Below, piece after piece: positions 10,919 through 42,994 of a stretch of DNA of 64,000 nucleotides (position 1 is its first letter; each line of letters opens with the position of its first letter). This DNA comes from a virus: IMG/VR virus record IMGVR_UViG_3300029893_000002; one strand, given 5' to 3'. The notes under the pieces are model-generated. The model worked only from the letters and a program-made list of their open reading frames with translations. It searched no databases and was not told the origin of the DNA. The translations under genes and the position numbers were made by a program.

Positions 10919-11575
10919 ATGACACCGAGCGAGCAGCAAAGACACGACCGCCTGATGCAGCTGGCCGTGGAGGCATTCGCCTCGCACGAGCTACGCCAGC
11001 ACAGGAGCGAACGTTGGCTCATCCAGAGGTGTGACGCCGGCCGCTGGAGCGGCTTCTACTCGGCCGAGATCATCGACGGCGCCCATGGCGAGCTCATCGT
11101 GACCGGCGACATCAACCACGTCATCTTCGCCGGGGGCGACAAGTGCGACCCGCGAGACAGAGTCCGCTGGATCGGCCGTTGCGAGTCGTTCGACTACTAC
11201 GTCCGCCAGAAGGCGGTCATCGGTACGGGCCGCGAGCTCATCGAGACCTACGACGCCGACGTGGCACGGGATGGACTCGCCGAGCTTCGTGCGGAACGGC
11301 TCGAGGCGCTTCGCGAGCGCGGGCTCGGCGCCGATGGCGACCGCTTCCTCGGCATCTACGAGGAGGCCGCGTCCTACCTGAGCGACCGAAGCGAGCTCGT
11401 CTCGTTCCTCTGCGACCGGGGCATTGACCCGGAGGTCCTGGAGGACCTGGGCGTCGTCATCGCTCCTCGGCTCTACTACGCGTACGCCGCCTGCCGCCGG
11501 CTCTCCGAGATCTTCGACGCCCAGGAGGCCGAGGGCTCCAGGCGCCCCGGGACGGGGGAGGCGGTCACCGTCTAA
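10919..11575 (+). CDS. Hypothetical phage protein
   Basis: ATG with purine-rich SD; coherent globular sequence. Confidence 0.75.
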   Translation: MTPSEQQRHDRLMQLAVEAFASHELRQHRSERWLIQRCDAGRWSGFYSAEIIDGAHGELIVTGDINHVIFAGGDKCDPRDRVRWIGRCESFDYYVRQKAVIGTGRELIETYDADVARDGLAELRAERLEALRERGLGADGDRFLGIYEEAASYLSDRSELVSFLCDRGIDPEVLEDLGVVIAPRLYYAYAACRRLSEIFDAQEAEGSRRPGTGEAVTV

Positions 11576-12664: not shown

Positions 12665-12668
12665 TCGG

Positions 12669-12739
12669 CTCGGGGAGCAGGAGTCGAACCCACACAGCCG
12701 GATCCAAAGGCCGGCGTCCTACCGTTAGACGATCCCCGA
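12669..12739 (-). tRNA. tRNA-Gln(TTG)
   Basis: Cloverleaf; loop CTTTGGA. Confidence 0.85.
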
Positions 12740-12743
12740 CAGG

Positions 12744-12817
12744 CGACCCGGACGGGACTCGAACCCGCATCCACCGGCTTGAAAGGCCGGCTGCCGGACC
12801 AATCAGCATCCCGGGCC
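12744..12817 (-). tRNA. tRNA-Glu(TTC)
   Basis: Cloverleaf; loop CTTTCAA. Confidence 0.85.
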
Positions 12818-12822
12818 ATCGG

Positions 12823-12896
12823 AGCCCCCGACGGGGATCGAACCCGCAACCTCCGGAGTACGAAACCGGCGCGCTTCCATCCTGCGCTTCGGGGGC
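12823..12896 (-). tRNA. tRNA-Thr(CGT)
   Basis: Cloverleaf; loop TTCGTAC. Confidence 0.85.
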
Positions 12897-12901
12897 GTCT
12901 G

Positions 12902-12971
12902 AGCCGGCGGCGGGAGTCGAACCCGCGGGGCCCGATTACAAAACGGGGTGCCCTCCAGTGGGCGCGCCGGC
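12902..12971 (-). tRNA. tRNA-Thr(TGT)
   Basis: Cloverleaf with short D arm; loop TTTGTAA. Confidence 0.75.
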
Positions 12972-12987
12972 GCCGAAGGATTCCGCC

Positions 12988-13065
12988 TGGCGTCCCCGGG
13001 GGGAGTTGAACCCTCCGTCTCCGGATTGAGAGTCCGGTATCCTTGGCCTGCTAGACGACGGGGAC
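12988..13065 (-). tRNA. tRNA-Glu(CTC)
   Basis: Cloverleaf; loop CTCTCAA; CCA encoded. Confidence 0.9.
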
Positions 13066-13071
13066 AAAACC

Positions 13072-13491
13072 ATGTGGATCGCAGCCGCAGCTATCGTCAC
13101 CTTGCTCCTGGCATGGACGGGAGGCCGCTACCGAAGTCGCGCGCTCGAGATGCTTCCACCCGAGAATCTCGACGCGACCCTCTACTGCAGGGGATGCGGC
13201 ACTCGGCACCCGGTCCCTCCTCACCGGCTCCGCTACCGCATCTACCGCTTCGTGACCATGCCGCTCGCCGGCATCTTCTACGCGGTCGCCATCCTTCGGC
13301 GCCGGCGCTACCACGTGCTTCTGGCCGAGGCGGCCGTGCAGGTGGCCGTCGGGATCATCCGCGGCACGCGAGGCGACGCGGACATCGACGCGCTCGTCGG
13401 GCTCGCGCTCACTCACAACGTGCCGTTCGACCCCGACGGGATCGCGCAGCTGCGGCATGGCGTGCGCATTCGCGACATGCACATGCGATAG
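13072..13491 (+). CDS. Membrane-associated hypothetical protein inserted antisense in the tRNA array
   Basis: Fills the gap between two tRNAs; N-terminal hydrophobic helix, CRGC. Confidence 0.6.
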   Translation: MWIAAAAIVTLLLAWTGGRYRSRALEMLPPENLDATLYCRGCGTRHPVPPHRLRYRIYRFVTMPLAGIFYAVAILRRRRYHVLLAEAAVQVAVGIIRGTRGDADIDALVGLALTHNVPFDPDGIAQLRHGVRIRDMHMR

Positions 13492-13564
13492 AGCGGCCGG
13501 CGGGAGTCGAACCCAGCGCTTCCGCGTTGGCAACGCGGCGTGCCACCAACAACACCTCGGCCGC
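13492..13564 (-). tRNA. tRNA-Gly(GCC)
   Basis: Cloverleaf; loop TTGCCAA. Confidence 0.85.
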
Positions 13565-13571
13565 AGCTCGG

Positions 13572-13657
13572 CGGAAGATGGAGGAGTCGAACCTCCGCCC
13601 CCGAAGGGACGACCCGGGTAGCAACCGGGCGCCGGGACCACCCCGGCCTCACCTTCC
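13572..13657 (-). tRNA. tRNA-Ser(GCT)
   Basis: Long variable arm; loop TTGCTAC. Confidence 0.9.
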
Positions 13658-13659
13658 AG

Positions 13660-13745
13660 CGGAAGACGGAGGAGTCGAACCCCTACCGCTCGCGCGGCAC
13701 CACCGGTCTTCGAGGCCGGTTGCCCTCCTGTGGGCGGCGTCTTCC
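13660..13745 (-). tRNA. tRNA-Ser(CGA)
   Basis: Long variable arm; loop CTCGAAG. Confidence 0.85.
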
Positions 13746-13747
13746 CG

Positions 13748-13836
13748 TGGCGGAAGGAGGGGGAGTCGAACCCCCAAGGCGTCGAGCGCTCGCCCCGCTT
13801 CCAACGGGGTCCCGTCACCATTCGGGTTGCCCTTCC
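13748..13836 (-). tRNA. tRNA-Ser(GGA)
   Basis: Long variable arm; loop TTGGAAG; CCA. Confidence 0.9.
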
Positions 13837-13839
13837 AGC

Positions 13840-13928
13840 TGGCGGAGGACGGAGGAGTCGAACCCCTACCGCTCGCGCGGCACCGACGGCATTCAAGGCC
13901 GTTCGCGCTCCAGTGCGCGGCGTCCTCC
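13840..13928 (-). tRNA. tRNA-Ser(TGA)
   Basis: Long variable arm; loop CTTGAAT; CCA. Confidence 0.88.
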
Positions 13929-13932
13929 CTAG

Positions 13933-14004
13933 TCGGGGTGGCGGGAGTCGAACCCGCGACCTCCTGTTCCCGAAACAGGCGCGCTTCCGCTGCGCTACAC
14001 CCCG
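13933..14004 (-). tRNA. tRNA-Pro(CGG)
   Basis: C1-G72; loop TTCGGGA. Confidence 0.9.
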
Positions 14005-14034
14005 GTGCGGCCGCCCAAATGGGCCCGGCCGCGT

Positions 14035-14562
14035 TCAGTCCTGCTCGAGCGCCCCGTGCCAGTAGAGCCAGTTGGCCCAGGCCTCCGGGATCGACGACGC
14101 GTTGTCGACCCGGAAGGCGACGACCGGCAGCCAGTTCGGCTTGATGGGCCGCTTGAGCAGCGTCATCCCGGCCTGCTCGGGCGTGCGGTTGCCCTTCTTC
14201 TCGTTGCAGCCGTAGCAGGCCATGACGATGTTCTCCCACCTCGTCCTTCCGCCATGCGCTCGAGGGATGACGTGGTCGTAGGTGAGCTTCTTGAGCGGAA
14301 AGCGGCCGCCGCAATACTGGCACCGGAACTCGTCCCGCGTAGCCACGTTGATGCGGCTGAACTTGATGGAGCGTCGCCGTCCGCGGACCGCCCGCAGCAG
14401 CCGCACCACCGCGGGCATCTTGATGACCAACGTGACCGACCGAATCTCCTCGTCGTACTCCTCGAGGACCTCGACCTTGCCGTCGAAGATCATGCAGACC
14501 GCGCGCTTCCAGTCGACGATTCGGTGGGGCTGGTAGCCCTGATCCAAAACGAGCGTGCGCAT
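14035..14562 (-). CDS. HNH endonuclease (McrA-like) embedded in the tRNA array
   Basis: RDEFRCQYCG, TYDHVIPRAHGG, ACYGCNEKKGN. Confidence 0.9.
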   Translation of the reverse strand: MRTLVLDQGYQPHRIVDWKRAVCMIFDGKVEVLEEYDEEIRSVTLVIKMPAVVRLLRAVRGRRRSIKFSRINVATRDEFRCQYCGGRFPLKKLTYDHVIPRAHGGRTRWENIVMACYGCNEKKGNRTPEQAGMTLLKRPIKPNWLPVVAFRVDNASSIPEAWANWLYWHGALEQD

Positions 14563-14585
14563 GGTGTCCTCCGAGAGAGTAACGG

Positions 14586-14671
14586 TGCGGACCGAGGGAG
14601 TCGAACCCTCACGGCCACGATGGGCCGCCGGGGTTTGAGCCCGGCGCGTCTGCCTGTTCCGCCAGGTCCGC
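14586..14671 (-). tRNA. tRNA-Leu(CAA)
   Basis: Long variable arm; loop CTCAAAC. Confidence 0.9.
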
Positions 14672-14672
14672 T

Positions 14673-14761
14673 TGGTGCAGAGAGAGGGAGTCGAACCCTC
14701 ACGGCCGCAATGGGCCACCGGCTCCTGAGGCCGGCGCGTCTTCCTGTTCCGCCACCTCTGC
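14673..14761 (-). tRNA. tRNA-Leu(CAG)
   Basis: Long variable arm; loop CTCAGGA; CCA. Confidence 0.9.
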
Positions 14762-14763
14762 GC

Positions 14764-14849
14764 TGGTACCTGGGACAGGAGTCGAACCTGCACGGGCCGA
14801 GGCCCACCTGGTCCTTAGCCAGGCGCGTCTGCCGTTCCGCCACCCAGGC
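14764..14849 (-). tRNA. tRNA-Leu(AAG)
   Basis: Leu-type body; stem CCTGG/CCAGG, loop CTAAGGA; CCA. Confidence 0.85.
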
Positions 14850-14857
14850 GCATCTCT

Positions 14858-14933
14858 TGGTACCCGAGCTCGGGGTCGAACCGAGGGCCTCCGCCGTGTG
14901 AAAGCGGCGCTCTTCCGTCTGAGCTACTCGGGC
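14858..14933 (-). tRNA. tRNA-Val(CAC)
   Basis: Stem CCGCT/GGCGG, loop TTCACAC; CCA. Confidence 0.85.
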
Positions 14934-14934
14934 A

Positions 14935-15009
14935 TGGTCGGAGCGGCGGGGATCGAACCCGCGACCTCCGGTCCCCCAGACCGGCGCGCTTCCGCTGCGC
15001 TACGCTCCG
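14935..15009 (-). tRNA. tRNA-Pro(GGG)
   Basis: C1-G72; loop CTGGGGG; CCA. Confidence 0.9.
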
Positions 15010-15010
15010 G

Positions 15011-15080
15011 TACCGCCGGAGGGAATCGAACCCTCGCCGACACCCGTATGAGAGGCGCGTCCATTCCAACGGTCGGCGGT
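15011..15080 (-). tRNA. Atypical tRNA with CAT anticodon (Met?)
   Basis: A1-U72, wobble-rich anticodon stem, loop CTCATAC, intact T arm. Confidence 0.6.
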
Positions 15081-15081
15081 G

Positions 15082-15155
15082 TTGCGGGGGACGGAATCGA
15101 ACCGTCGTCGTCCCTGGGTTATGAGCCCGGGATGGGAGCCAACACCCTCCCCGCG
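15082..15155 (-). tRNA. tRNA-fMet(CAT)
   Basis: C1.A72 mismatch; GGG/CCC in anticodon stem. Confidence 0.85.
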
Positions 15156-15156
15156 G

Positions 15157-15233
15157 CGCCCTCGGCAGGACTCGAACCTGCACAATGTCCCGGCTTCGGA
15201 GGCCGGCGCTCTGTCCGGTTGAGCTACGAGGGC
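15157..15233 (-). tRNA. tRNA-Arg(CCG)
   Basis: Loop CTCCGAA. Confidence 0.88.
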
Positions 15234-15236
15234 AGC

Positions 15237-15311
15237 TGGCACCCGCACCAGGAGTCGAACCCAGATCTTCCGGTCCGTAGCCGGACGCTCTATCCGTTGA
15301 GCTATGCGGGC
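15237..15311 (-). tRNA. tRNA-Arg(ACG)
   Basis: Loop CTACGGA; CCA. Confidence 0.9.
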
Positions 15312-15314
15312 ATG

Positions 15315-15390
15315 TGGCGCTCCCGTGAGGACTCGAACCCCAACAGGCCGGATTAGAACGCCGGCTGCCGATCCGATCGGCGTCGGGAGC
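15315..15390 (-). tRNA. tRNA-Arg(TCT) with 9-nt anticodon loop
   Basis: Stem GCCGG/CCGGC enclosing CGTTCTAAT; G73; sits in the Arg group; CCA. Confidence 0.7.
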
Positions 15391-15391
15391 G

Positions 15392-15464
15392 TGGAGACGC
15401 GAGCGAGAATCGAACTCGCCTACGCCGGGTTGCAGCCGGCGGTGGTCAGCCAGACCGTCGCGTC
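15392..15464 (-). tRNA. tRNA-Cys(GCA)
   Basis: Loop CTGCAAC; U73; CCA. Confidence 0.85.
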
Positions 15465-15805
15465 AAGTTGTCGATGACCGCTACGCGGCCCGTTTTGTAG
15501 ATGACGATGCGGCAGCCTGCCGGTTCCACGACGGTACGCATGAGGTCACGCCGGACATCATGGCGGAGCTCCGCACCCCGTATGGCCTCGTTGAAATCGA
15601 GGTCGTCTGGTACGTTCCCGAGCGCGTGATACCGGCACAACGCATGACGGACCGCGCACCATACCTCCTGGTCGATGTCCTCGGCACCATGACGTGCGCC
15701 GCACCGGCACACGTAGGAGCTTTGCTTTCCGATGGTGGCAAAAAGACTGTACCCGCACTCGCAGATCAGATCGTCGCCACGCAACAGTGGTTGGTACATC
15801 CCCAC
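15446..15805 (-). CDS. Cys-rich ORF resembling the Zn-ribbon/C-terminal part of a large serine recombinase
   Basis: LLRG..ICECG..YVCRCG..IDQEVW; fills a gap in the array but overlaps tRNA-Cys 5' end. Confidence 0.4.
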   Translation of the reverse strand: MGMYQPLLRGDDLICECGYSLFATIGKQSSYVCRCGARHGAEDIDQEVWCAVRHALCRYHALGNVPDDLDFNEAIRGAELRHDVRRDLMRTVVEPAGCRIVIYKTGRVAVIDNLTRRSG

Positions 15806-15814
15806 ATTCTAACA

Positions 15815-15889
15815 TGGAGCGGCTGGCGGGAATCGAACCCGCATCACTGGGTTGGAAGCCCAGGGCCCTAGCCAATAGACCACAGCCGC
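15815..15889 (-). tRNA. tRNA-Gly(TCC)
   Basis: Loop CTTCCAA; CCA. Confidence 0.9.
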
Positions 15890-15893
15890 GAAC

Positions 15894-15968
15894 TGGTGGA
15901 CCCGGTCGGAATCGAACCGACGACCCCCTGCGTGCAAAACAGGTGCTCTCCCGCTGAGCTACGAGCCC
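15894..15968 (-). tRNA. tRNA-Ala(TGC)
   Basis: G3.U70; loop TTTGCAC; CCA. Confidence 0.9.
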
Positions 15969-15975
15969 TCTCGAG

Positions 15976-16048
15976 TGGAACCGGCGGGAGTCGAACCCGC
16001 GACCTCCTCATTGCGAACGAGGCGCTCTCCCGGCTGAGCTACGGCCCC
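15976..16048 (-). tRNA. tRNA-Ala(CGC)
   Basis: G3.U70; loop TTCGCAA. Confidence 0.9.
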
Positions 16049-16049
16049 G

Positions 16050-16091
16050 AAAAAGCGCGAGCCCGACCGGCTTTCACCGACGGGCCCGCGC
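16050..16091 (-). terminator. Intrinsic terminator-like hairpin inside the tRNA array
   Basis: GCGCGGGCCCG-TCGGT-GAAA-GCCGG-TCGGGCTCGCGC followed by TTTTT. Confidence 0.6.
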
Positions 16092-16117
16092 ACATCCATG
16101 GCGTCTATTTCGGCAGG

Positions 16118-16189
16118 TTGCGGGGGGAGGAGTCGAACCTCCGACCTCTAGGTTATGAGCCTAGTGAGCTACCGCTGCTCTACCCCACA
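16118..16189 (-). tRNA. fMet-like tRNA(CAT), variant
   Basis: fMet-type D arm (GAGC..GCTC), U1-A72, anticodon stem CTAGG/CCTAG. Confidence 0.75.
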
Positions 16190-16213
16190 CACGCCGCCGA
16201 AGATAGCACACGG

Positions 16214-16286
16214 TGGAAGCGGAGGGAATCGAACCCTCGACCTTCGGCGTGCCACGCCGACGCTCTCCCAACTGAGCTACGCCCCC
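16214..16286 (-). tRNA. tRNA-Ala(GGC)
   Basis: G3.U70; loop GTGGCAC. Confidence 0.88.
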
Positions 16287-16292
16287 ATGCGG

Positions 16293-16366
16293 TCGTCCCG
16301 GAGGGAATCGAACCCCCGGCCTCCAGCGTGTCGAGCTGGCGCTCTTCCTGTCTGAGCTACGGGACG
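16293..16366 (-). tRNA. tRNA-Val(GAC), C33 variant
   Basis: Loop TCGACAC. Confidence 0.8.
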
Positions 16367-16368
16367 GT

Positions 16369-16442
16369 TGGACCAGGAGGGAGTCGAACCCACGACGTCC
16401 CGGTTATGAGCCGGGGGCTCTCACCAGCTGAGCTACTGGTCC
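16369..16442 (-). tRNA. tRNA-Ile2(CAT), probable lysidine-modified
   Basis: G1-C72; C4-G69 and C5-G68 (known TilS determinants); loop CTCATAA. Confidence 0.75.
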
Positions 16443-16448
16443 ATTCGG

Positions 16449-16521
16449 TACTGCCGCCTGGAATCGAACCAGGAGCAACCCGCTTATCAGGCGGGTCAGG
16501 TCAACCAGACCGTCCGGCAGC
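16449..16521 (-). tRNA. tRNA-Ile(GAT)
   Basis: Loop CTGATAA. Confidence 0.8.
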
Positions 16522-16522
16522 A

Positions 16523-16600
16523 TGGGGTGACCGAGGGGAATCGAACCCCCACCTCCAGGGCCACAACCTGGCGTGCAGCAACCACTACACCACGGCCACC
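16523..16600 (-). tRNA. tRNA-His(GTG)
   Basis: G-1, C73; loop TTGTGGC; CCA. Confidence 0.9.
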
Positions 16601-16618
16601 ACAGGCAGTCACCACCGG

Positions 16619-16692
16619 AGCCCCCGACCGGCGTCGAACCGGCAACCTCCCGCGTACCAGGCGGGCGCTCTTCCGTCCTGAGCTTCGGGGGC
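16619..16692 (-). tRNA. tRNA-Thr(GGT)
   Basis: Loop CTGGTAC. Confidence 0.88.
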
Positions 16693-16693
16693 G

Positions 16694-16766
16694 CACTGCC
16701 GGCAGGACTCGAACCTGCGTCCTCCCGTTTAGGAAACGGGTGCCTCGTCCACTAGGCTACGGCAGC
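16694..16766 (-). tRNA. tRNA-Arg(CCT)
   Basis: Loop TTCCTAA. Confidence 0.88.
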
Positions 16767-16771
16767 ATCGG

Positions 16772-16858
16772 TGGGGAGGGAGGGAGTCGAACCCACTCAG
16801 ACGCGATGGCCACTCGGTTTACAGCCGAGCCCGGCTCTCCAATCTCCGGCGCCTCCCC
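16772..16858 (-). tRNA. tRNA-Tyr(GTA)
   Basis: Long variable arm; loop CTGTAAA. Confidence 0.88.
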
Positions 16859-16901
16859 GCGTTTTAGCCTCGAGCGCGATTGCGAACGCAACCGCTAACC
16901 G

Positions 16902-16973
16902 TCGGGGTGACAGGAATCGAACCTGCCCGGTCCTGCCCCCAAAGCAGGCGCTCCGCCTTGGAGCATCACCCCG
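16902..16973 (-). tRNA. tRNA-Pro(TGG)
   Basis: C1-G72; loop TTTGGGG. Confidence 0.85.
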
Positions 16974-16974
16974 G

Positions 16975-17047
16975 TGCCACGAGCTGGATTTGAACCAACG
17001 CACCCCGGGCTTCAACCGGGCGCTCTACCGGACTGAGCTATCGTGGC
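16975..17047 (-). tRNA. tRNA-Phe(GAA)
   Basis: Loop TTGAAGC. Confidence 0.88.
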
Positions 17048-17053
17048 AGTACG

Positions 17054-17128
17054 TGGCGGCGCGTACGGGAATCGAACCCGTGCCCCCCGATGGACAGTCG
17101 GGGATCCTCGCCACTGGACCAACGCGCC
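17054..17128 (-). tRNA. tRNA-Asp(GTC)
   Basis: Loop CTGTCCA; CCA. Confidence 0.9.
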
Positions 17129-17225
17129 AAGCGAGGGGCGCTCTACCCTTGAGCTACCCGACACCTCCGGCGTTTCTTCACCATCCGGCGCCGGAGCGGG
17201 ACTCGAACCCGCAACCTCCCTTCGC
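17129..17225 (-). ncRNA. Circularly permuted tRNA-like RNA, candidate YrlA-type Y RNA
   Basis: T arm precedes D arm; acceptor-like stem closed by a linker; ends GCGAAGGG/CCCCTCGC pair where the anticodon stem would be; no anticodon loop. Confidence 0.7.
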
Positions 17226-17227
17226 GG

Positions 17228-17300
17228 CAGGCCGCCTGGGTGTCGAACCCAGCCGTCTCGGATTTGGAGTCCGAGCCGCCCAGCCAACGGGCCGCGACCT
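17228..17300 (-). tRNA. tRNA-Trp(CCA)
   Basis: Loop CTCCAAA; G73. Confidence 0.85.
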
Positions 17301-17301
17301 A

Positions 17302-17378
17302 TGGCTCCAGGGGTGGGACTCGAACCCACGACCACCCGGTTAACAGCCGGGCGCTACTACCAACTGAGCTACCCTGGA
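17302..17378 (-). tRNA. tRNA-Asn(GTT)
   Basis: U1-A72; loop CTGTTAA; CCA. Confidence 0.9.
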
Positions 17379-17379
17379 A

Positions 17380-17453
17380 TGGTGGGCCGCGCGCTCGCGC
17401 GCGCGACCCTTCATCTGCGCGGAATCCTTCTTCGGTTGTCAACGAGCGAGGCC
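17380..17453 (-). ncRNA. tRNA-sized hairpin RNA ending in ACCA, without T or D arm
   Basis: GGCC/GGCC and CGCTCG/CGAGCG terminal stems; occupies a tRNA-sized slot. Confidence 0.4.
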
Positions 17454-17454
17454 T

Positions 17455-17530
17455 TGGCCCGGGAGGTGGGGCTCGAACCCACGGCCTTCGCGTTCAGAGC
17501 GCGACGCTCTTCCAGCTGAGCTACTCCCGA
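17455..17530 (-). tRNA. tRNA-Gln(CTG)
   Basis: Loop CTCTGAA; G73; CCA. Confidence 0.85.
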
Positions 17531-17531
17531 T

Positions 17532-17608
17532 TGGTGGACCCGGAGGGAATCGAACCCCCGACCGTCCGGGTAAGAACCGGCTGCTGCTGCCTGCTGAGCT
17601 ACGGGTCC
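17532..17608 (-). tRNA. tRNA-Lys(CTT)
   Basis: Loop TTCTTAC; CCA. Confidence 0.85.
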
Positions 17609-17615
17609 GTTGTCG

Positions 17616-17688
17616 TGGGGGCGGTGGGGCTCGAACCCACTCAGGCTGGCTTAAAGGGCCAGTGCCCGTCCCGTCAGGCGCCACCCCC
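17616..17688 (-). tRNA. tRNA-Lys(TTT), C33 variant
   Basis: Stem CTGGC/GCCAG; loop CCTTTAA. Confidence 0.75.
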
Positions 17689-27904: not shown

Positions 27905-29860
27905 GCCTCCAACCGCCATCCCCTCGGACGAACACCTCTAAGAGCCGCGCCTCCATACCGCACTTCATCGGGTCGCGTGACGGACCTCCACACCGCACTT
28001 CCACAAGCGACGGAGGCCCCATTCCTCCAAACCGCACCCTAATCACCAAACGTCAGAGGCCTCCAGGCCGCTCGAGACGGCCCGGTTGGACCAGGTGCTC
28101 CTAAGCCGCACCGGACAAGGAGCGGAAGGGCCTCCAAACCGCATGCGGCTGGCGACAAACGTGCGTGGCCGCACCCCAAATCGAATCCTCCGCAGAGCCT
28201 CCAGCCGCACCAGGCGGTGAGTCGCCTCCAAACCCGCACCCTGTTTTTTCGACAAGATCTGGGTGTGCCTCCAACCGCTGTGCCCACGTCGCGTTGATAG
28301 AGATGCAGCCTCCAAACCGCTACTCAGCCGCCCTCCAACCGCAACCGCTCATGTTCGTGGGCGCGCCTCCAAACCGCGGAGCGTCGACCTGTGACTGGCG
28401 CCTCCCAACCGCACCGCGCTCGTGTGGTGCCGCTCGCACCAGTATCCGCTCCTCCAACCGCATTTGCGGGGCGGCTCTGTCACCTCCAACCGCAACCGCT
28501 CGTTTCCATCCCGACCTCCGGTCTGCCTCCCAACCGCACCGCGCCACGGTCTAAGGCGGTACGAGTTCGCGACCTCCAACCGCAACCCGCTATGCATGGG
28601 CGACACCAGATCTCTCCCCTCCAGCCGCACCATCCGAAGATCCTCGTACGCCTCCAAACCGCATGGCTCTCCCAACCGCGCCCCGCAAATCCAAACCGCC
28701 TGCACGATCCACGATCGGTCCTCCAACCGCACCGAGCCCTCCTCCGCACCCATCGCCTTCGTTGCATGGCGCAAGGCCATTCACGCCCGCAACGAGAAGC
28801 TCCCGACTGCCCTCCAACCGCACGGCGCAACGGCATTCGCGCTCGACGACCTCCAACCGCACCCGCGCTCGTTGCGTCATCTCCGCACGGTGCCTCCAAC
28901 CGCACCATGGATGCACCACGTCGCAGCCTCCAAACCGCACCGGCCCTTTCCCGACCCCGCATCCGCAAGACGCCGGCAGGCGCCCTCCAACCGCACGCTC
29001 GTGGCGCAAGCCACCGGAGCTCCATGGCCTATCGTTCCTCCAACCCGCTCCTCGGCTAACTCGCACACGCGCCCGTTGCCTCTCGTGCCGGATCGTGAGT
29101 ACCTCCTCCAACCGCACAACTACCGACCCCGGCTCCTCCACCGCATCACTGGCATACCCGGGGCCGAACACCTCCAACCGCACGCTCTCGTCGGCATTGG
29201 TCCACCCCGTTTGCCTCCACCCCGCACCTGCTCTCGTTGAAGAAACGCGTGTGGATACACCCTGAGCCTCCAACCGCGGTTGGAGGCGGTCGGTGCCCAG
29301 GCTAGTTGGCCCCCGAAAACGAGCTCTGGTGCTCTCCGCGCGCGGGCCCGGGGACTCCTCCAAATCGCACCCGTCCTTGCTGCCGCCGGAAAAGCGCACC
29401 CGACCAGCCTCCAACCGCACACGCTCGCAATCGGACTGCCTCCGCCCATCAAGCGAGCTCCCGCTCCTCCAACCGCACACGCTCTCGTCGGTAGGGGCGC
29501 GCACGGCGGCGCCGTGCCCGGCACGACTACCTCCCAACCGCACACGCTCTCGTCGCATGGCGCACAAGGTGGACGCCGCCCTGTCCACGACTCCGGAGAA
29601 ACTGCTCCTCCAACCGCACCCGCGCTCGTTGCGCGCTCGCAGCCATGGAGTCGGACCTCCAACCGCACCCGCGCTCGTTGCGCGCTCGCGCGCAGCCATG
29701 GAGTCGGACCTCCAACCGCACCTTGCATGGCGCAAGGCACCGTCGCGCCTCCAACCCGCACCCGTTGCATGGCGCAAGGCCAGCACCGCGCCGCCCCCCC
29801 CAACAGAGCCACCATCCCCCTCCAACGCACCCGTCCTTGTTGCCGTGCCAGAGCTCGATG
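27905..29860 (-). repeat. Degenerate CRISPR trailer: roughly 35 copies (manual count) of the repeat core CCTCCAACCGCA at irregular spacing
   Basis: Core and indel variants recur; longer repeat remnants increase toward 29861. Confidence 0.75.
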
Positions 29861-30261
29861 CCTCCAACCGCACCCGCGCTCGTTGCATGGCGCAAGTTCC
29901 AGCGGCCGTCCCTTGTGAGGTATTCGATCGCGCCCTCCAACCGCACCCGCGCTCGTTGCATGGCGCAAGCGGCGAATAGCGCATAGCCGCGCATCGCCTC
30001 GGGCGCATCCTCCAACCGCACCCGCGCTCGTTGCATGGCGCAAGGTCCAGTCGCAAGGTGATAGAGCGTCGCACCGAACGACCTCCAACCGCACCCGCGC
30101 TCGTTGCATGGCGCAAGGTCGCACGTGAGGAGCAGCTCGGCCTCGAGCTCGGTCCTCCAACCGCACCCGCGCTCGTTGCATGGCGCAAGCTGCCCGAGGA
30201 CCTGCGCCATCTCGTCCAGCGCCTGCCTCCAACCGCACCCGCGCTCGTTGCATGGCGCAAG
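29861..30261 (-). CRISPR. CRISPR array: 6 identical 36-nt repeats (CTTGCGCCATGCAACGAGCGCGGGTGCGGTTGGAGG), 5 spacers of 36-39 nt
   Basis: Repeats start at 29861, 29934, 30009, 30082, 30154, 30226; spacers unique. Confidence 0.95.
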
Positions 30262-30396
30262 GGCCGCCGCCGAAGCATCGTGATTGCGCGCCCCTACCTG
30301 ACGCGCTGCGAGAGGCTCGGACGGCGGCCATTTCGTCCTATGGGGATTGTCAACGATCCCGTGGCGCGCCCGGGCGCGCCACCAAGCCTCTCGCGG
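30262..30396 (-). ncRNA. Structured leader, candidate guide scaffold, between effector stop and first repeat
   Basis: 10-bp helices GCGAGAGGCT/AGCCTCTCGC and GTGGCGCGCC/GGCGCGCCAC; GGCCGCCG/CGGCGGCC. Confidence 0.5.
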
Positions 30397-31887
30397 CTAC
30401 TCGCGGCCGCCGAGCTCGGTCGCCTCGCCGAGCCGCTCCTTGTCGAGCGCGTTCATGGCCGCCGTGACGTCGAGATGCCGCTCGTAGCCGCATCCCTGGC
30501 AAACGAAGAGCCAGCGGCGCAGGTTCATGTTCTTCTCGTCGGTGTGACCGCACGACGGGCACTTCTGGCTGATGTAGTGCGCGGGGACCTTCATCACCTT
30601 GATCCCGTACGACTCGGCGACCGATGAGATCGCCAGCATCAGCTGGTAGAACGGCCACTCCTGGACGAGCTTCCAGATGTCGTACCCGATCCGGTCGATG
30701 CCCTTCCAGTGCCGGATTCCGGAGAAGTCCTCGACGACGATCGTCGTCACCTCGTGCTCGGCGCACCACCGGACGAAGTTGTTGGCGAGTTGCCAGTTCT
30801 TCGTGTTGCGCCACCTGGCGGCCTTGCCGCGCAGGCGCTCGGTCGGCTGGAGGATTCGGCGGCGGCCGCGGCCGCGGCGGCCGCTCGCGCGCGAGTCGTT
30901 CTGGTAGCTGCGGCGGCGGCGCTGCATCTGCCGGAGGTACTGGACGATCTCGTTGCCGGGGTAGCGCCAGGTGCGGCCGCCGTCGGTCACCCCGACGAGG
31001 AAGTAGCGGATGCCGCGGTTGATGGCGCAGACCGACCCGCCGCCGGTCGCCCGCTCGACCCGCTTCTTGTACGGAATGTGCAAGTACCAGCGGCCCTTGG
31101 TCTCCTTGACGAGGAGATCGCCGTGCTTCCATTCGCCCCGGGCGAGTGCGCAAAGGACGCGGCGCTGGTAGCGGTCGCGCAACTGGATGGGGATCGTGTG
31201 GTAGCGGGGCTTGCCCGGCCCCTCCCGCAGCAGGGCGAAGCGAACCTCGACGGTGTTCTTGGCCGTCTCGCTGATCTTGAAGCCCACCTCGGCGGCCCGG
31301 AGGACGATGGGGTCGGTCCGCTTGTAGTGCGCGGGCGACTTGTCCATCCGAACGAGCGCCTCCCAGCGGTCGCGCCGCCACTTCGTCCAGACGCGCTTGG
31401 TGACCGCCGAGACGTGGCAGGGCGGAAGCTCCGGCGCCGAGCGGCACCCCATCCGGTAGGCCTCCGACTGGCTGATGCCAAGATCCTTGACCTTCCACTC
31501 GCCCCGCACGGGACGGCGCCCCTCGAGCAGGATGGGGTCGAGGTTCGCGGCGTCGCGCTTCCACATCTCGCGGGAGATGACGTTCGCCACACGCGCCTGG
31601 AGCTCCTGCGCGATGCGGAGATCCTTTCGGAGCGCCTTGGCCTCGTCGGGCGGCAAGAGCCGGAAGTCGACCCGGATCCGGCCTGTCGTTCGGACGAGCT
31701 CGGTGGTCGCAGTAGGATCCGCACCTGCGGTAGGCACCTCCCGAAGGAGGTGTGGTGCGGTTGCCCCTCGTACGGGGCCATTGGCGAGCCGGCCGGAAGT
31801 ATCTTCCCCGCTAGCGGCATCTTCCGGACGTTCCTCGCCTCCGGGCAGTGGAGTCTGCCCAGCAGATGCGGATCCTGCTACGGCCAC
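30397..31887 (-). CDS. TnpB/Cas12f-like RuvC effector, RuvC-I Asp replaced by Asn (probably nuclease-dead)
   Basis: RuvC-I CAINRGI (AAC codon), RuvC-II IVVEDF, SQKCPSCG..CQGCG Zn finger, RuvC-III HLDVTAAMN; GGAGG SD. Confidence 0.9.
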   Translation of the reverse strand: MAVAGSASAGQTPLPGGEERPEDAASGEDTSGRLANGPVRGATAPHLLREVPTAGADPTATTELVRTTGRIRVDFRLLPPDEAKALRKDLRIAQELQARVANVISREMWKRDAANLDPILLEGRRPVRGEWKVKDLGISQSEAYRMGCRSAPELPPCHVSAVTKRVWTKWRRDRWEALVRMDKSPAHYKRTDPIVLRAAEVGFKISETAKNTVEVRFALLREGPGKPRYHTIPIQLRDRYQRRVLCALARGEWKHGDLLVKETKGRWYLHIPYKKRVERATGGGSVCAINRGIRYFLVGVTDGGRTWRYPGNEIVQYLRQMQRRRRSYQNDSRASGRRGRGRRRILQPTERLRGKAARWRNTKNWQLANNFVRWCAEHEVTTIVVEDFSGIRHWKGIDRIGYDIWKLVQEWPFYQLMLAISSVAESYGIKVMKVPAHYISQKCPSCGHTDEKNMNLRRWLFVCQGCGYERHLDVTAAMNALDKERLGEATELGGRE

Positions 31888-31920: not shown

Positions 31921-32232
31921 CTACCCGATGCCGCGGGGCTCGTCAAGCACGTCGCTCCGAACGATGAGCGTGTCGGTCCAGCTGAGGGATGCGAGCGGCC
32001 GGCCGGCCGAGACCTGCCCGATGGCCTCGCCGAGGTTCGGCTCGCAGTAGCAGAGATAGGCGCCGTCGGGCCGCTCGGCCTCCGGGATGCTGAACAGCGT
32101 CCGCGCCACCGACTGGATGTCCTGGTAGCCGAACGGTCCTACGGCGGCGAGCTCGAGTGTGCCGCCGCGCCGCTTGAAGGTGAGGAGCCAGCTTGGTGTG
32201 GTGGGTCCGGGCTGCTTAGTGGTCTCCGCCAT
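31921..32232 (-). CDS. Hypothetical 103-aa protein directly upstream of the effector
   Basis: Follows a TTGACA promoter, same strand as the effector. Confidence 0.7.
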   Translation of the reverse strand: MAETTKQPGPTTPSWLLTFKRRGGTLELAAVGPFGYQDIQSVARTLFSIPEAERPDGAYLCYCEPNLGEAIGQVSAGRPLASLSWTDTLIVRSDVLDEPRGIG

Positions 32233-32242
32233 GGATGGTGCG

Positions 32243-32286
32243 AGGCTACCGGGCCCGAGAGGGCTGTCAACGGGGGATGCTATTCT
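32243..32286. promoter_or_regulatory. Divergent promoters: minus TTGACA-N16-TAGCCT; plus extended -10 TGCTATTCT
   Basis: Read directly between 32232 and 32293. Confidence 0.6.
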
Positions 32287-32292
32287 CCACAT

Positions 32293-33348
32293 GTGGATGC
32301 TCTTGCCCTTCTTCCGGAACAGCGGGACAAGGTGGTCCGCTTCGGCGGGGGCAGTCCGCACCGGCTCCGGCTTCACCTCCTCGCGCTCGTCGCCTTCCTC
32401 GAGCAGCAGCCCGAGAACACGCGCCGTAGCTACGCAGCCGCCCTCCGGCAATTCTTCGAGTGCCACGACTGGATCTGCCCCGAAGAGGTCACCGTCCGGC
32501 ACGTGACCGAGTACAAGCGGGCGATGATCGAGTCGAAGCGGGCGCGCTCGACCGTCGCCCAGCGGCTCGCCGCCCTCTCGAGCTACTTCGAGTTTCTCCG
32601 GCGGCCGATAGGCGCCGCGGAGAAGCCCATCCTCACCTTCAACCCCGTCCGGAGCGTCAGCCGCAAGGACGTCTCGCAGCAAAACTACCGGACCGCCAAG
32701 GCGATCGAGTGGGAGAAGATCGAGCGCATGCTCGAGGCGATGCCGGACGACGTCATCGGATGCCGTGACCGGGCCATCCTGCTCTTCTTTGCCTACACGG
32801 GCCGGAGAAGGAGCGAGGTCGCAGCGCTGCGGATCCGTGACCTCGACCTCAACAGCAACCCCATGACCTATCGGTGCCGCGTCAAGGGCGGCCACGTCGA
32901 GACCTTCGAGCTTCCGACCATCGTCTACGACGCCATCAAGCGCTACTGGGTCGCTTCGGGGCGGCTTCCGCGCATGACCAAGGACAGCGCCGTCTTCACC
33001 CACGTCCACCGGCTCGGCGTCACCATGCGCAAGCGGCCCGAAGCCACGATGAGCGACAAGGCCATGAGCGAGGTCCTCAAGCGCGCGGCACGTCGCGTCG
33101 GGCTCGACGGGGACCCCGAGCTGCATCTTCACGCGATCCGGCACCGCTACGCCGAGGACGCCGAGGCTGGGGGCGCAAGCTCGCGCGAGATCCAGAAGGC
33201 CCTCAGCCACAAGTCGCTCAAGACGACCGAGGCCTACCTGGCGAGGCTCGGCAAGGTCAGGGGCGCCCTCGCCGACCCCGTGTCTCGGGTTCGGCAAGGA
33301 GCCCCGCGTCGAGGAACGAAAGGTAGCCCTCGTCCGGGCTCGCGATAA
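32293..33348 (+). CDS. Tyrosine recombinase/integrase (XerC/D-like)
   Basis: N-terminal SAM-like domain; TGRRRSE, KGG, HAIRH, LSH, TTEAY; full R-K-H-R-H-Y set. Confidence 0.93.
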   Translation: MDALALLPEQRDKVVRFGGGSPHRLRLHLLALVAFLEQQPENTRRSYAAALRQFFECHDWICPEEVTVRHVTEYKRAMIESKRARSTVAQRLAALSSYFEFLRRPIGAAEKPILTFNPVRSVSRKDVSQQNYRTAKAIEWEKIERMLEAMPDDVIGCRDRAILLFFAYTGRRRSEVAALRIRDLDLNSNPMTYRCRVKGGHVETFELPTIVYDAIKRYWVASGRLPRMTKDSAVFTHVHRLGVTMRKRPEATMSDKAMSEVLKRAARRVGLDGDPELHLHAIRHRYAEDAEAGGASSREIQKALSHKSLKTTEAYLARLGKVRGALADPVSRVRQGAPRRGTKGSPRPGSR

Positions 33349-38389: not shown

Positions 38390-39175
38390 CTACTCGGCGG
38401 CCGCCGCGGCACCCCAGAAAAACTCGTGGAGCTTCACGAACGCGCGCTTCTGGATCTGGTGGACGCGCTGCTTGCTGATGCCGAGCTCCTGCGCCAGCTC
38501 CTCGCAGAGCGCCGCCTCCTCGGTGAGAAAGCGCTGCTCGATGATGCGCCGCTCGCGCTCGTCGAGGACCGAGAGCGCTTGATCGACCTCGTCGCGCGCG
38601 TGCAGCAGCTCCTCGTAGCGCTCACACAGCGCGTCCGGCGCCGGCACCTCCGCCGCCACGTGATCAACCATTTCCCCGCCGGCGTCGTACCCGCGCCGGT
38701 AGACGAGAACGCGCTCGACGTCGGCGAGCTTTGCATCGGTGCCGATGCGCTCGGCAAGGGCCTCGACCGAGGGCTCCTCGCCGTTTTCGGCGATGAGGCT
38801 GTCGAGCGCCCGGCCGAGCCTCGTCTGCGTCACGCGCACCGAGCGGCTCGCCGGCAGGTTCACGATGCGCCGGTTCTTCTGGAGCCAGCGGATGGTGTAG
38901 GCCTTGGCCCACCACCTCGCGTACGTCTGAAATCGGAACCCGCGGGATGGGTCGAACTTGCGGAGGGCGTGCATGATCCCGAGCATCGCCTCCTGCAGGG
39001 CGTCGTCGAACGAGGCGGTGCCGCGCCGGGCGACGCGCGCCGCGGCGCCCTCGGCAAGGAGCCGGAACCGGTAGACGATCTCGTCCTCGGCGCGCTTGTC
39101 TCCCGCCTTCGCGCGCTCGAAGAGAGCGCGCTCCTCGAGCGGCTGGAGCGGCGTGTACGGCTCGGTCGTCGTCAC
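38390..39175 (-). CDS. RNA polymerase sigma-70 family factor
   Basis: DALQEAMLG..KFDPSRGFRFQTYARWW (region 2); ELGISKQRVHQIQKRA (region 4). Confidence 0.93.
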   Translation of the reverse strand: MTTTEPYTPLQPLEERALFERAKAGDKRAEDEIVYRFRLLAEGAAARVARRGTASFDDALQEAMLGIMHALRKFDPSRGFRFQTYARWWAKAYTIRWLQKNRRIVNLPASRSVRVTQTRLGRALDSLIAENGEEPSVEALAERIGTDAKLADVERVLVYRRGYDAGGEMVDHVAAEVPAPDALCERYEELLHARDEVDQALSVLDERERRIIEQRFLTEEAALCEELAQELGISKQRVHQIQKRAFVKLHEFFWGAAAAAE

Positions 39176-39179
39176 GGTT

Positions 39180-39863
39180 CTACGCGTCAGGACGCTTCGT
39201 CGTGTCGTGGATGGCGGCGTCGAGGGCGTCGGCGAGCGTCATGCCGCAACCGCTCTTCTCCGTCTTGTCGAATTCGATGAACGTCGCCGCAAATCCGTGC
39301 TCGCCCGTGGGTCGCCCTGTGATTCGGTCGTGGATGGGCCGCGCATCGAACCGTACCGACCGCTCGGTCTTTTCGGGCGTGTCCGCGAGAAAGGCCTCGA
39401 CCTGCTTGAGAAGCTCCGCCTCCCGGCGAACCACGGGGCCGAACGCATACTTCGCAAGCGCCTCGATCCCCTCCTGCGCACGAACGGCCCACTCCCTGGG
39501 TTCCTTGTCGTTTGGACCCGGAAAGATCGAGACCGTATAGAGCCGGTCGTCCGCATCCCAGTCCGGAGTGCCCGTCCACCGATCGAGCGGTGGGGCGTAC
39601 CGAAGCCGGATCGTCCGCGGGTTCGCAAGCGTCGTCCCCGGCTTCGGCAGCAGCATCCGCTCCGCACGCACGAGCGCCGTCATTGCCGTCAGCTTCTCGT
39701 AGGGACCGTCCGCGTCCCGGCCGACCGTTCGTTCGACGAGGCGGTCCACTTCGAGCTCGAGTAGAACCGGCCATGAGCCGGGGCGAGCGTTGCCCCGCGG
39801 CCGCCAGCGCGTCCCTCGCGTGTCTGCCAGCCGCTCGAACAGCTCTCGGTATTCGTCCACCAT
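39180..39863 (-). CDS. Hypothetical protein
   Basis: In operon order; SD present. Confidence 0.7.
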   Translation of the reverse strand: MVDEYRELFERLADTRGTRWRPRGNARPGSWPVLLELEVDRLVERTVGRDADGPYEKLTAMTALVRAERMLLPKPGTTLANPRTIRLRYAPPLDRWTGTPDWDADDRLYTVSIFPGPNDKEPREWAVRAQEGIEALAKYAFGPVVRREAELLKQVEAFLADTPEKTERSVRFDARPIHDRITGRPTGEHGFAATFIEFDKTEKSGCGMTLADALDAAIHDTTKRPDA

Positions 39864-41637: not shown

Positions 41638-42617
41638 TCCCCTTCCGCACCGTCGAGGACGAGTCCCGCTACGTCGCGCTGACGACCGAGATCTACCTCC
41701 GGCTCGCCGCGACGCTCGGGCGCCACGATCCGGTCGCCGTGAGCGAGATCCTCCGAAACCTCGCGAAGCTCGAGGCCATGGCCTACAGCGAGGGCATCCG
41801 GCAGGGCGTCGCCGCCGAGGCGATCCGCGCCGCGTCGCCCGCAGTCCCGGGCACCGCCATGGAGATCCACCGGGCCATCTACGCCGACGCCGACACCCCG
41901 CTCTGCCGCGTCGAGGAGAGCGGCATCGCCCACCCGGCCCTCGAGCCGGCGCCGATGACCTTCCAGCCGCTCACGCTCGAGGAGGCGAGGGCGCAGTACC
42001 CGGCCGTCGGCCGCTACCGGGAGCGGCCAGCGGTGAATGCCGACGCTCCCGCCGAGCGCCCGGTCCCAAACGAGCAGGTTCTCTTCCGGACCGTGCTCGA
42101 TCGCTACCTTTCGATGACGTCCGAGGACGAGCCTGCAGGTGCGGAGGCCATCGCCGAGCTCGACCTCGGCGCGCCGTGCCCTGGCTGCGCAGAGGCCGCT
42201 TCGCAGGACGACGAGCGGCACCTCTTTTCCGACCGCTGCGTCTGGCGCAGGACCGACGAGGGGACCGTCCAGGTCGACCCGGCAAGCGTCCTCTTCGGGG
42301 CGCCCTCCTTCGTCGCGGGCGAGATCGAGGCCGAGGGCTCGCCGGCGCTCGTCGAGCGGATCCGGACCGTGCTCGAGCACCTCCTCCAGACCGGATGGCG
42401 CCCGAAGGGATGGGAGGACACCGTCCTCATGATCCACCAGACGAGCCAGATGGCCGCCGACGTCATCGACGCCGAGCTCGCGACCGCGCAGGGCCGCGCC
42501 CTTCTCGGCCAGCTGGGGCTCCACCACGTCCAGCCCCGATCGGCCGCCGAGACGGGCTACGAGTTGGTCGAGCCGCCCCCCGCGGGGTACGCTCGAAACG
42601 ATCCGACACGGGGGTGA
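41634..42617 (+). CDS. Hypothetical protein
   Basis: ATGA coupling; stop lies within the tmRNA 5' end. Confidence 0.75.
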   Translation: MIPFRTVEDESRYVALTTEIYLRLAATLGRHDPVAVSEILRNLAKLEAMAYSEGIRQGVAAEAIRAASPAVPGTAMEIHRAIYADADTPLCRVEESGIAHPALEPAPMTFQPLTLEEARAQYPAVGRYRERPAVNADAPAERPVPNEQVLFRTVLDRYLSMTSEDEPAGAEAIAELDLGAPCPGCAEAASQDDERHLFSDRCVWRRTDEGTVQVDPASVLFGAPSFVAGEIEAEGSPALVERIRTVLEHLLQTGWRPKGWEDTVLMIHQTSQMAADVIDAELATAQGRALLGQLGLHHVQPRSAAETGYELVEPPPAGYARNDPTRG

Positions 42618-42994
42618 ACAGGCTTCGACAGGTAGGGGAACGCGAACAAGCTGCGTGTCCCGGTCGGTCCGTCACCGGGTTACCAAGGCGGCCAACCCAC
42701 AAACGCCAACGACAACGGCAACCTCGCGCAGGCAGCTGCGTGAGCGTCCCGGCGGCCGATGCCTGGTAGGCCGCCGGGGCGACGGTCACCAGGCTAGGGC
42801 GCGTCCGGTTCCCGCTCTCCGGGCCGCCCAAAGCTAGAAGCGGGTGGTGGAGGGCGCGCTGGGTCACACCAGTCGCCCCCAGGTGAGCCGCTCCGGCACG
42901 GGGACACCTCAACACCCCCGAACAGGAGCTACGCACGTAGAGGCCTTCGCGCGATCCTGTCTGGACCCGGGTTCGACTCCCGGCACCTCCACCA
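42610..42994 (+). ncRNA. ssrA: tmRNA, tag peptide ANDNGNLAQAAA
   Basis: 5' GGGGGTG..TTCGAC; G3.U70 acceptor with CACCTCC-ACCA; T arm; tag ORF GCCAACGACAAC..TGA. Confidence 0.95.

Follow-up and report, generated by a model that had tools for sequence, protein, structure and literature searches.

MmCas12m and PmCas12m, effectors of type V-M CRISPR systems, carry the RuvC triads HDD and NDD, and bind and silence DNA without cutting it (bioRxiv 10.64898/2026.03.26.714355; PMC10691335). dCas12f-sigmaE and the proteins of the CRISPR-associated dCas12f cluster are relatives of Cas12f, inactivated in nature, that bind DNA under the guidance of RNA (Hoffmann et al., PMC13472631). They belong to the Un1Cas12f branch and to Bacteroidota, have lost RuvC-III by C-terminal truncation, mostly have no arrays and stand in an operon with rpoE, and a half repeat persists in these systems as the 3′ end of the guide scaffold (PMC13472631). 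The rpoE gene of dCas12f-sigmaE has a C-terminal extension. TldR is a miniature, RuvC-inactivated, RNA-guided repressor, often phage-encoded, from another TnpB branch; it uses a single omegaRNA guide downstream of its gene against fixed host targets (fliC, oppF) and has no arrays. A census of TnpB and Cas12 proteins from 2023 reported large Cas12f branches with altered catalytic sites, as well as a V-U24 group in which RuvC-I is non-canonical and the neighbour is a helix-turn-helix (HTH) protein (PMC10691335). Here we describe a locus in IMG/VR virus record IMGVR_UViG_3300029893_000002, of which a stretch of 64,000 nucleotides (nt), hereafter the window, was analysed. Carried by a large phage-like element, this compact module is CRISPR-like and of type V, has no adaptation genes and is comparable in kind to Cas12m, Cas12k, TldR and dCas12f, and judging from its sequence it probably encodes an RNA-guided, multi-guide, phage-encoded DNA binder or silencer that does not cut. 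New here are a predicted scaffold RNA that overlaps the start of the effector gene and the explanation that it offers for a tail of mini-repeats; in the literature searched, neither the clade nor arrays cut to 13-nt handles are described, nor is a scaffold RNA that shares its sequence with the 5′ end of an effector open reading frame (ORF). The clade may already be present, unnamed, in the 2023 census; no HTH protein was seen beside the effector gene.

The effector is a protein of 496 amino acids (aa) with the following parts.

30397-31887, minus strand: effector gene, Cas12f-like (WED-REC-RuvC-zinc ribbon), from PADLOC, NCBIfam, AlphaFold2 (AF2) and Foldseek.
31018-31020, minus strand: RuvC-I position, Asn290, codon AAC (Asp in active Cas12f and TnpB), from alignment to Cas12f chains of the PDB.
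30730-30732, minus strand: RuvC-II Glu386, codon GAG, kept.
30469-30471, minus strand: RuvC-III Asp473, codon GAC, kept and nearly invariant in the family.
30490-30561, minus strand: CxxC...CxxC zinc ribbon (TNB domain), Cys443 to Cys466 (Pfam Cas12f1-like_TNB, 2.9e-15), its cysteines invariant or nearly so in the family.

By sequence, profile and fold, the nearest described proteins are Cas12f1 of the V-U3 group (AsCas12f, SpCas12f1 and OsCas12f; type V-F), a type whose effectors work as an asymmetric homodimer with a single guide RNA. The PADLOC profiles Cas12f (1.7e-55) and Cas12u3 (4.9e-51) matched over nearly the full length, the NCBIfam guided_TnpB subfamily matched at 3e-42, and Cas12f chains of the PDB were matched by HMMER with E values from 1e-26 to 1e-30 (best 1.8e-30). 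The AF2 model, built from 65 relatives, had a predicted local distance difference test score of 87.5, residues 1-56 being disordered, and its best Foldseek match was AsCas12f (8j12, E 3e-27, template modelling (TM) score 0.73; TM 0.73-0.77 for AsCas12f), followed by SpCas12f1, OsCas12f and CnCas12f, with Cas12m2 far lower (TM 0.39-0.45). Like V-F Cas12f, the protein is small, has a zinc-ribbon TNB domain, lies next to a CRISPR array without cas1 or cas2, and is accompanied by a scaffold RNA that pairs in silico with the repeat, as does the anti-repeat of a trans-activating CRISPR RNA (tracrRNA). It differs from V-F Cas12f in its incomplete RuvC D-E-D triad (Asn here; H, R or T in relatives), with which cleavage would not be expected; in a scaffold RNA at, and overlapping, the 5′ end of the ORF; in G-rich repeats that end in TGGAGG and arrays that can shrink to 13-nt handles; and in its carriers, which are high-GC phage-like elements of soil and subsurface metagenomes. 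It is also unlike IS200/IS605 TnpB, having no TnpA within 10 kb, an array in place of a single guide, and an NCBIfam IS200_TnpB score of 39 bits against a cut-off of 425. Because a scaffold RNA of the Cas12f/omegaRNA type is used as well, the effector reads as a derived Cas12f lineage, grouped with AsCas12f-like proteins by sequence, fold and tree, and the independent TnpB-to-Cas12 transition that had been suggested by a sequence-only reading of the window, made earlier from its letters, found no support in these placements.

In the HMMER alignment with the solved Cas12f chains, AINRG stands opposite GVDMG or GIDLG, which agrees with the earlier observation that Asn (AAC) occupies the RuvC-I position while the RuvC-II Glu and the RuvC-III Asp are intact. 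Sequencing error at Asn290 was rejected, since the codon is covered by contigs from two samples of a subsurface metagenome with zero differing letters and since non-Asp residues occur clade-wide. When 1.84 billion cluster representatives were searched exhaustively, 98 proteins reached E < 1e-30, all of them 31-51% identical to the query. The RuvC-I column of the MAFFT family alignment reads N in 84 sequences, H in 18, R in 8, T in 7, Q in 2, C in 1 and D in 29, with Asp restricted to more distant AsCas12f-like proteins of 400-470 aa. In a midpoint-rooted FastTree tree of 137 full-length cluster representatives, the 27 DED proteins were separated from the 110 without RuvC-I Asp with 96% local support, the Asp-bearing group forming one side of a single branch, which is consistent with a single event of Asp loss. 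Within the non-Asp clade the triad has eroded further, to NDD, HDD, HPD, HGE and TAD. At least 23 repeats are kept in locus L009 (HPD; L numbers denote relatives' loci), arrays are also kept in L012 (HGE), L017 and L021, and the tracrRNAs of all four match their own repeats. Since arrays and matching tracrRNAs persist in loci in which two triad residues have been replaced, guided function appears to outlive the catalytic triad, which argues for guided binding, not cutting.

It is unlikely, in our judgement, that the protein is still a nuclease or nickase in which Asn290 together with Glu386 and Asp473, or a substitute residue, cuts DNA or its own precursor CRISPR RNA (crRNA), so that the locus would mediate ordinary cutting interference. 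The retention of Glu386 and Asp473 and of the RuvC-III Asp in 143 of 152 aligned sequences would suit such an activity, and the 2023 census argues that conserved RuvC substitutions can mean a site that is rearranged and active (PMC10691335); however, the clade has N, H, R, T, Q or C at RuvC-I, which is not how a conserved alternative catalytic residue behaves, the family alignment shows no conspicuous new acidic residue that is invariant, arrays and tracrRNA are mostly retained by members that have lost two positions (HPD, HGE, TAD), and Cas12m with NDD or HDD was shown experimentally to be nuclease-dead (bioRxiv 10.64898/2026.03.26.714355). Cas12m (type V-M) is also similar in that its RuvC-I residue is Asn or His, in a triad that has eroded gradually within the clade, and in having no adaptation module. 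Cas12m is nevertheless another lineage, to judge from its low TM scores and from the PADLOC Cas12u1 profile, which matched only the C-terminal part of our protein (2.1e-8; residues 343-483). Cas12m proteins have about 600 aa and use crRNA alone, without tracrRNA, with repeats that form a hairpin of their own, whereas the repeats here are G-rich with few C and a separate scaffold is present.

The repeats lie behind the effector gene, on its strand.

29861-30261, minus strand: six identical 36-nt repeats with five spacers of 36, 36, 37, 39 and 37 nt.
30262-30396, minus strand: stretch of 135 nt from the stop codon to the first full repeat, beginning with the degenerate, handle-like GGCUUGGUGG.
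27906-29860, minus strand: tail of some 38 mini-repeats, each reduced to the 3′-terminal 9-13 nt of the repeat (GUGCGGUUGGAGG), with irregular spacing of 23-141 nt.

The sequence-only reading had described a 496-aa RuvC protein 135 nt upstream of six identical 36-nt repeats on the same strand, as part of a multi-spacer system without adaptation genes. All of this is correct, except that the repeat field does not end at 29861 and goes on below it as mini-repeats. The tail region has no coding signal and a strong G-skew. TGGAGG, the 3′ core of the repeat, occurs 43 times on the array strand between 27880 and 30300 (2.4 kb), against about one occurrence expected from the rest of the window (0.45 per kb), and once on the other strand. 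The tail sequence was identical in contigs from two samples, and tails of like kind are found in L003 and L005; in the comparison of the array between samples, Logan contigs break at the repeats. Each of the five spacers, previously read in several cases as plausible coding sequence, contains a reading frame rich in GC at third codon positions (GC3), as judged by eye without statistics. Two adjoining tail units (29607-29709) have the same guide, which indicates local duplication. The stretch 30262-30396 contains GGTAGGGGCGCGC; its perfect 13-nt complement is part of a degenerate repeat unit that follows some 800 nt downstream (29466-29501, minus strand).

A same-strand array was present in 20 of the 21 relatives' loci with enough flanking sequence, which makes the array a trait of the family. 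Because most of these arrays begin 0-20 nt past the stop codon, the 135-nt stretch of the window is not a conserved feature. The relatives' repeats are also 36 nt long and rich in G; their usual ending is TGGAGG, and TGCAGG or TGGAAG is less frequent. The spacing and placement of the arrays are unlike the uniform spacers produced by Cas1-Cas2: repeat spacing in the regular array parts of L002, L005, L009 and L016 has a wide range (55-81 nt), and arrays of L004 and L016 lie several kb from the gene, some of those in L004 in the opposite orientation. Like dCas12f-sigmaE, the effector described here is a relative of Cas12f and probably inactivated, but it keeps RuvC-III and the zinc ribbon, is accompanied by long arrays and has no sigma factor beside it (the nearest is 6.5 kb away). 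The effector resembles TldR in being a small protein with a probably inactivated RuvC on a phage-like element, and differs in its multi-unit array and in that no self or host target was found (window; one spacer in GTDB genomes).

The repeats are tied to a predicted scaffold RNA in the 5′ end of the gene, which the sequence-only reading missed.

31730-31860, minus strand: tracrRNA-like scaffold RNA over codons ~10-53, from RNAalifold, covariance model, fold z-score and GC3.
31843-31860, minus strand: hairpin 1, whose 6-nt loop ACUCCA (31849-31854) is complementary to the repeat end UGGAG.
31754-31763, minus strand: anti-handle CAACCGCACC, the complement of the GGUGCGGUUG that immediately precedes the terminal GGAGG in the repeat.

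In an alignment of 17 loci the scaffold consists, in order, of hairpin 1 (6 bp, 6-nt loop), a long-range stem in which GGCGAG pairs with CUCGCC and encloses an inner helix, hairpin 2, the variable single-stranded anti-handle, and hairpin 3. RNAalifold predicted 22 pairs for these loci, with compensatory changes in 16 of the 22. A covariance model (R1) built from 16 loci matched each family locus once, with 70-111 bits, on the strand of the gene and at its 5′ end, and seven of these loci lay outside the model; the match in the window scored 99.7 bits at 31730-31859. The fold z-score of the window's scaffold was -3.57, and the predicted fold leaves both the hairpin 1 loop and the anti-handle unpaired. 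The longest perfect complement of the anti-handle was the repeat of its own locus in 13 of 15 loci, and none of 20,000 permutations in a swap test was as good. The hairpin 1 loop covaries with the repeat end: most loci have CUCCA and TGGAG, L009, L011, L015 and L016 have CUGCA and TGCAG, and L006 has UUCCA and TGGAA. Together the two sites cover the last 13-15 nt of the repeat, which is the part that survives in the mini-repeats; these would retain only the 13-nt handle because the scaffold pairs with just that end of the repeat.

The predicted architecture is of the omegaRNA/Cas12f guide RNA type, with a pseudoknot just before the guide and a repeat:anti-repeat duplex, and appears here to be split between a scaffold at the gene's 5′ end and numerous short guides that follow the gene. 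It shares with TnpB omegaRNA and TranC-type intermediates a guide scaffold that overlaps the effector ORF and a pseudoknot that joins an upstream loop to the nucleotides before the guide, and differs from them in having neither transposase nor transposon ends and in a scaffold located at the 5′ and not the 3′ end of the ORF, separate from multiple guides. The conserved block B of the scaffold falls in different reading frames in different loci, and GC3 of codons 1-62 is 0.52, against 0.94 in the remainder of the gene. An N-terminal motif, PEGE..GH..GE.SP..LAN, is present in the disordered tail of about half of the relatives; as a docking motif it was rejected, its conservation being largely an RNA constraint in view of the nucleotide-level conservation, the frame shifts between loci and the low GC3. 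Other places for the tracrRNA were also rejected: RNAduplex scans of the 135-nt leader and of the 3′ part of the gene, where an anti-repeat might lie, gave no position common to the loci, the covariance model had no match in the leader, and most relatives have little or no leader between stop codon and array. In a more distant sister group with the triad H-E-D, weak matches to the scaffold model (20-44 bits) were seen downstream of the gene, which is the side of the omegaRNA of TnpB, one each in L025, L028, L030 and L031, and L027 of the same group has four weak matches around its gene. This suggests that, in the clade of the window, the scaffold was transferred across the gene, from its 3′ to its 5′ side.

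The locus could be a decaying relic, with a dead Cas12f gene and an eroding array of no present function, as the repeat field is for the most part degenerate and the searches gave no targets. We regard this as very improbable. The ORF is intact, with the high GC3 given above, its fold is confidently predicted, and about 110 non-Asp clusters (≤50% identity) keep full-length ORFs. The compensatory changes of the scaffold and its covariation with the repeats of each locus would require ongoing selection, and the erosion of the repeats spares exactly the nucleotides that pair with the tracrRNA, in three loci.

For a guided binder that does not cut, we envisage the following mechanism. One transcription unit of the minus strand would hold all parts, namely the scaffold over the first ~50 codons, the effector ORF, the six full repeats and the ~38 mini-repeats. 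Each crRNA would retain the last ~13-15 nt of the repeat, of which the terminal UGGAG may form a pseudoknot with the hairpin 1 loop, while the preceding 9-10 nt may pair with the single-stranded anti-handle. The ribonucleoprotein would then bind complementary double-stranded DNA beside a protospacer-adjacent motif (PAM), without cutting it, and, once bound, would keep a competitor element or host genes from being transcribed or replicated. In this scheme expression, processing, binding without cleavage, silencing and the targets are inferred, whereas the gene, its fold, Asn290, the array, the clade-wide loss of Asp, the covarying scaffold RNA and the complementarity of repeat and scaffold come from the analysis itself.

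Several points weigh against this reading. None of the five spacers had a protospacer in IMG/VR, with patterns that tolerated wobble pairs, and the one spacer searched by pattern in GTDB genomes had none there; the whole array gave only chance-level matches (E ≥ 0.2) to INPHARED phages and PLSDB plasmids, and no self-target in the window was better than 14/14 or 18/20, so that the spacers, through which the sequence-only reading had hoped to find targets, pointed to no target and no PAM in these collections. The one metatranscriptome examined had no contig on the locus. The first ~60 codons may be RNA only rather than translated. Their translation is favoured by a frame kept in most loci and by a Shine-Dalgarno sequence (GGAGG) 7 nt before the GTG start, and is disfavoured by the low GC3 and by loci with the element outside the ORF (in L014 and L022 it lies upstream). 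Glu386 and the nearly invariant Asp473 are kept, and could provide residual catalysis, such as RNA processing or nicking. Finally, the FastTree tree has a midpoint root, and the presumed direction of change, from D to N, rests on Asp as the norm across TnpB and Cas12.

The surroundings of the effector gene bear on what carries it and on possible partners.

31921-32502, minus strand: ORF without assigned function directly upstream of the effector, 103 aa from ATG (193 aa in the public assembly call).
32503-33348, plus strand: tyrosine recombinase of 281 aa, divergent, next to the preceding ORF (Pfam).
38393-39238, minus strand: sigma-70-family factor, 6.5 kb from the effector (PHROG 351, 1.8e-41; Pfam Sigma70_r2/r4).
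12667-17688, minus strand: block of 39 tRNA genes for nearly all amino acids.
42610-42994, plus strand: transfer-messenger RNA (tmRNA), tag peptide ANDNGNLAQAAA.

Pfam matches within ~10 kb on either side of the effector gene were the tyrosine recombinase, two RadC proteins, a GDSL lipase, the sigma factor, an amidase, GP88 and a HAD phosphatase, and the remaining ORFs searched there had no Pfam match. No Cas1, Cas2, Cas4 or TnpA was seen among the genes of this interval, in agreement with the sequence-only reading, and unlike Cas12k of CRISPR-associated transposons, no Tn7-like tnsB, tnsC or tniQ was among the matches. Rather than a plain roadblock, the effector might be an RNA-guided recruiter of a partner, as Cas12k is for Tn7 and dCas12f for sigma-E, the candidates being the divergent tyrosine recombinase, the phage sigma factor or a host factor. 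The recombinase right upstream and the sigma-70-family gene would fit, the 2023 census reports inactivated TnpBs beside tyrosine recombinases (PMC10691335), and the conserved N-terminal tail could serve as a docking peptide. We find recruitment rather improbable nonetheless: neither the recombinase nor the 103-aa ORF recurs beside relatives, so both were ruled out as a conserved partner gene, and the conservation of the tail is explained by RNA structure, block B being read in differing frames at low GC3. Of 23 loci, at most 4 have any one family of neighbour genes in common, so that neither an adaptation module nor a partner is conserved. In four loci (L003:12442-13812, L005:3660-5033, L011:13592-14518 and L015:1997-2812), a gene of some 300-450 aa without Pfam match stands beside or between the arrays.

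The window has a GC content of 68% and contains, besides the tRNA block and the tmRNA, a methyltransferase, lysis-type peptidases and enzymes, GP88 and an integrase. A tRNA block of this kind together with a tmRNA is typical of very large phages. It is mainly for the 39-tRNA block and the tmRNA that the contig is taken as viral, and the carrier element is most likely a large phage. Two relatives lie on IMG/VR viral contigs of 78 and 105 kb, which, with the phage-like features of the window, supports the earlier supposition that the system is element-encoded. Metagenome contigs carry 43 relatives; several of these contigs measure 60-190 kb, and primase, integrase and depolymerase-like genes stand in the vicinity. 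One pattern scan of 185,579 species-representative genomes gave no relatives, and cultured phage records held none that exceeded 31% identity; metagenomes are the one known source of the family. This large uncharacterised clade (about 110 clusters at 50% identity) is easy to overlook because it is missing from those records.

If our reading is right, this would be the fourth or fifth natural route from a RuvC-type guided nuclease to a guided binder, here on phage-like elements and with long multi-guide arrays. It is possible, though short of probable, that the clade represents a previously uncharacterised, phage-associated type V subtype of obligate DNA binders, in which the tracrRNA lies in the first codons of the effector and a 13-nt repeat remnant suffices for a guide, so that dozens of short guides would be carried in arrays that grow and shrink without Cas1-Cas2 and would silence genes of the host or of rival phages during infection. 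A scaffold in the 5′ end of the ORF would be the mirror image of the TnpB omegaRNA, and bears on how an omegaRNA is split into tracrRNA and crRNA. If 13-nt handles suffice, a core protein of ~440 aa with very short repeats would be available for multiplexed tools of the CRISPR interference type. The locus also raises the question of how arrays form without an adaptation module. In L001, a guide (11493-11520) matches at 20/20 nt a coding region of the same contig (9125-9144), about 860 nt upstream of its own effector, with the 8 nt beside the handle unmatched; a non-cutting effector would tolerate such a self-derived spacer, or the match may point to the source of spacers.

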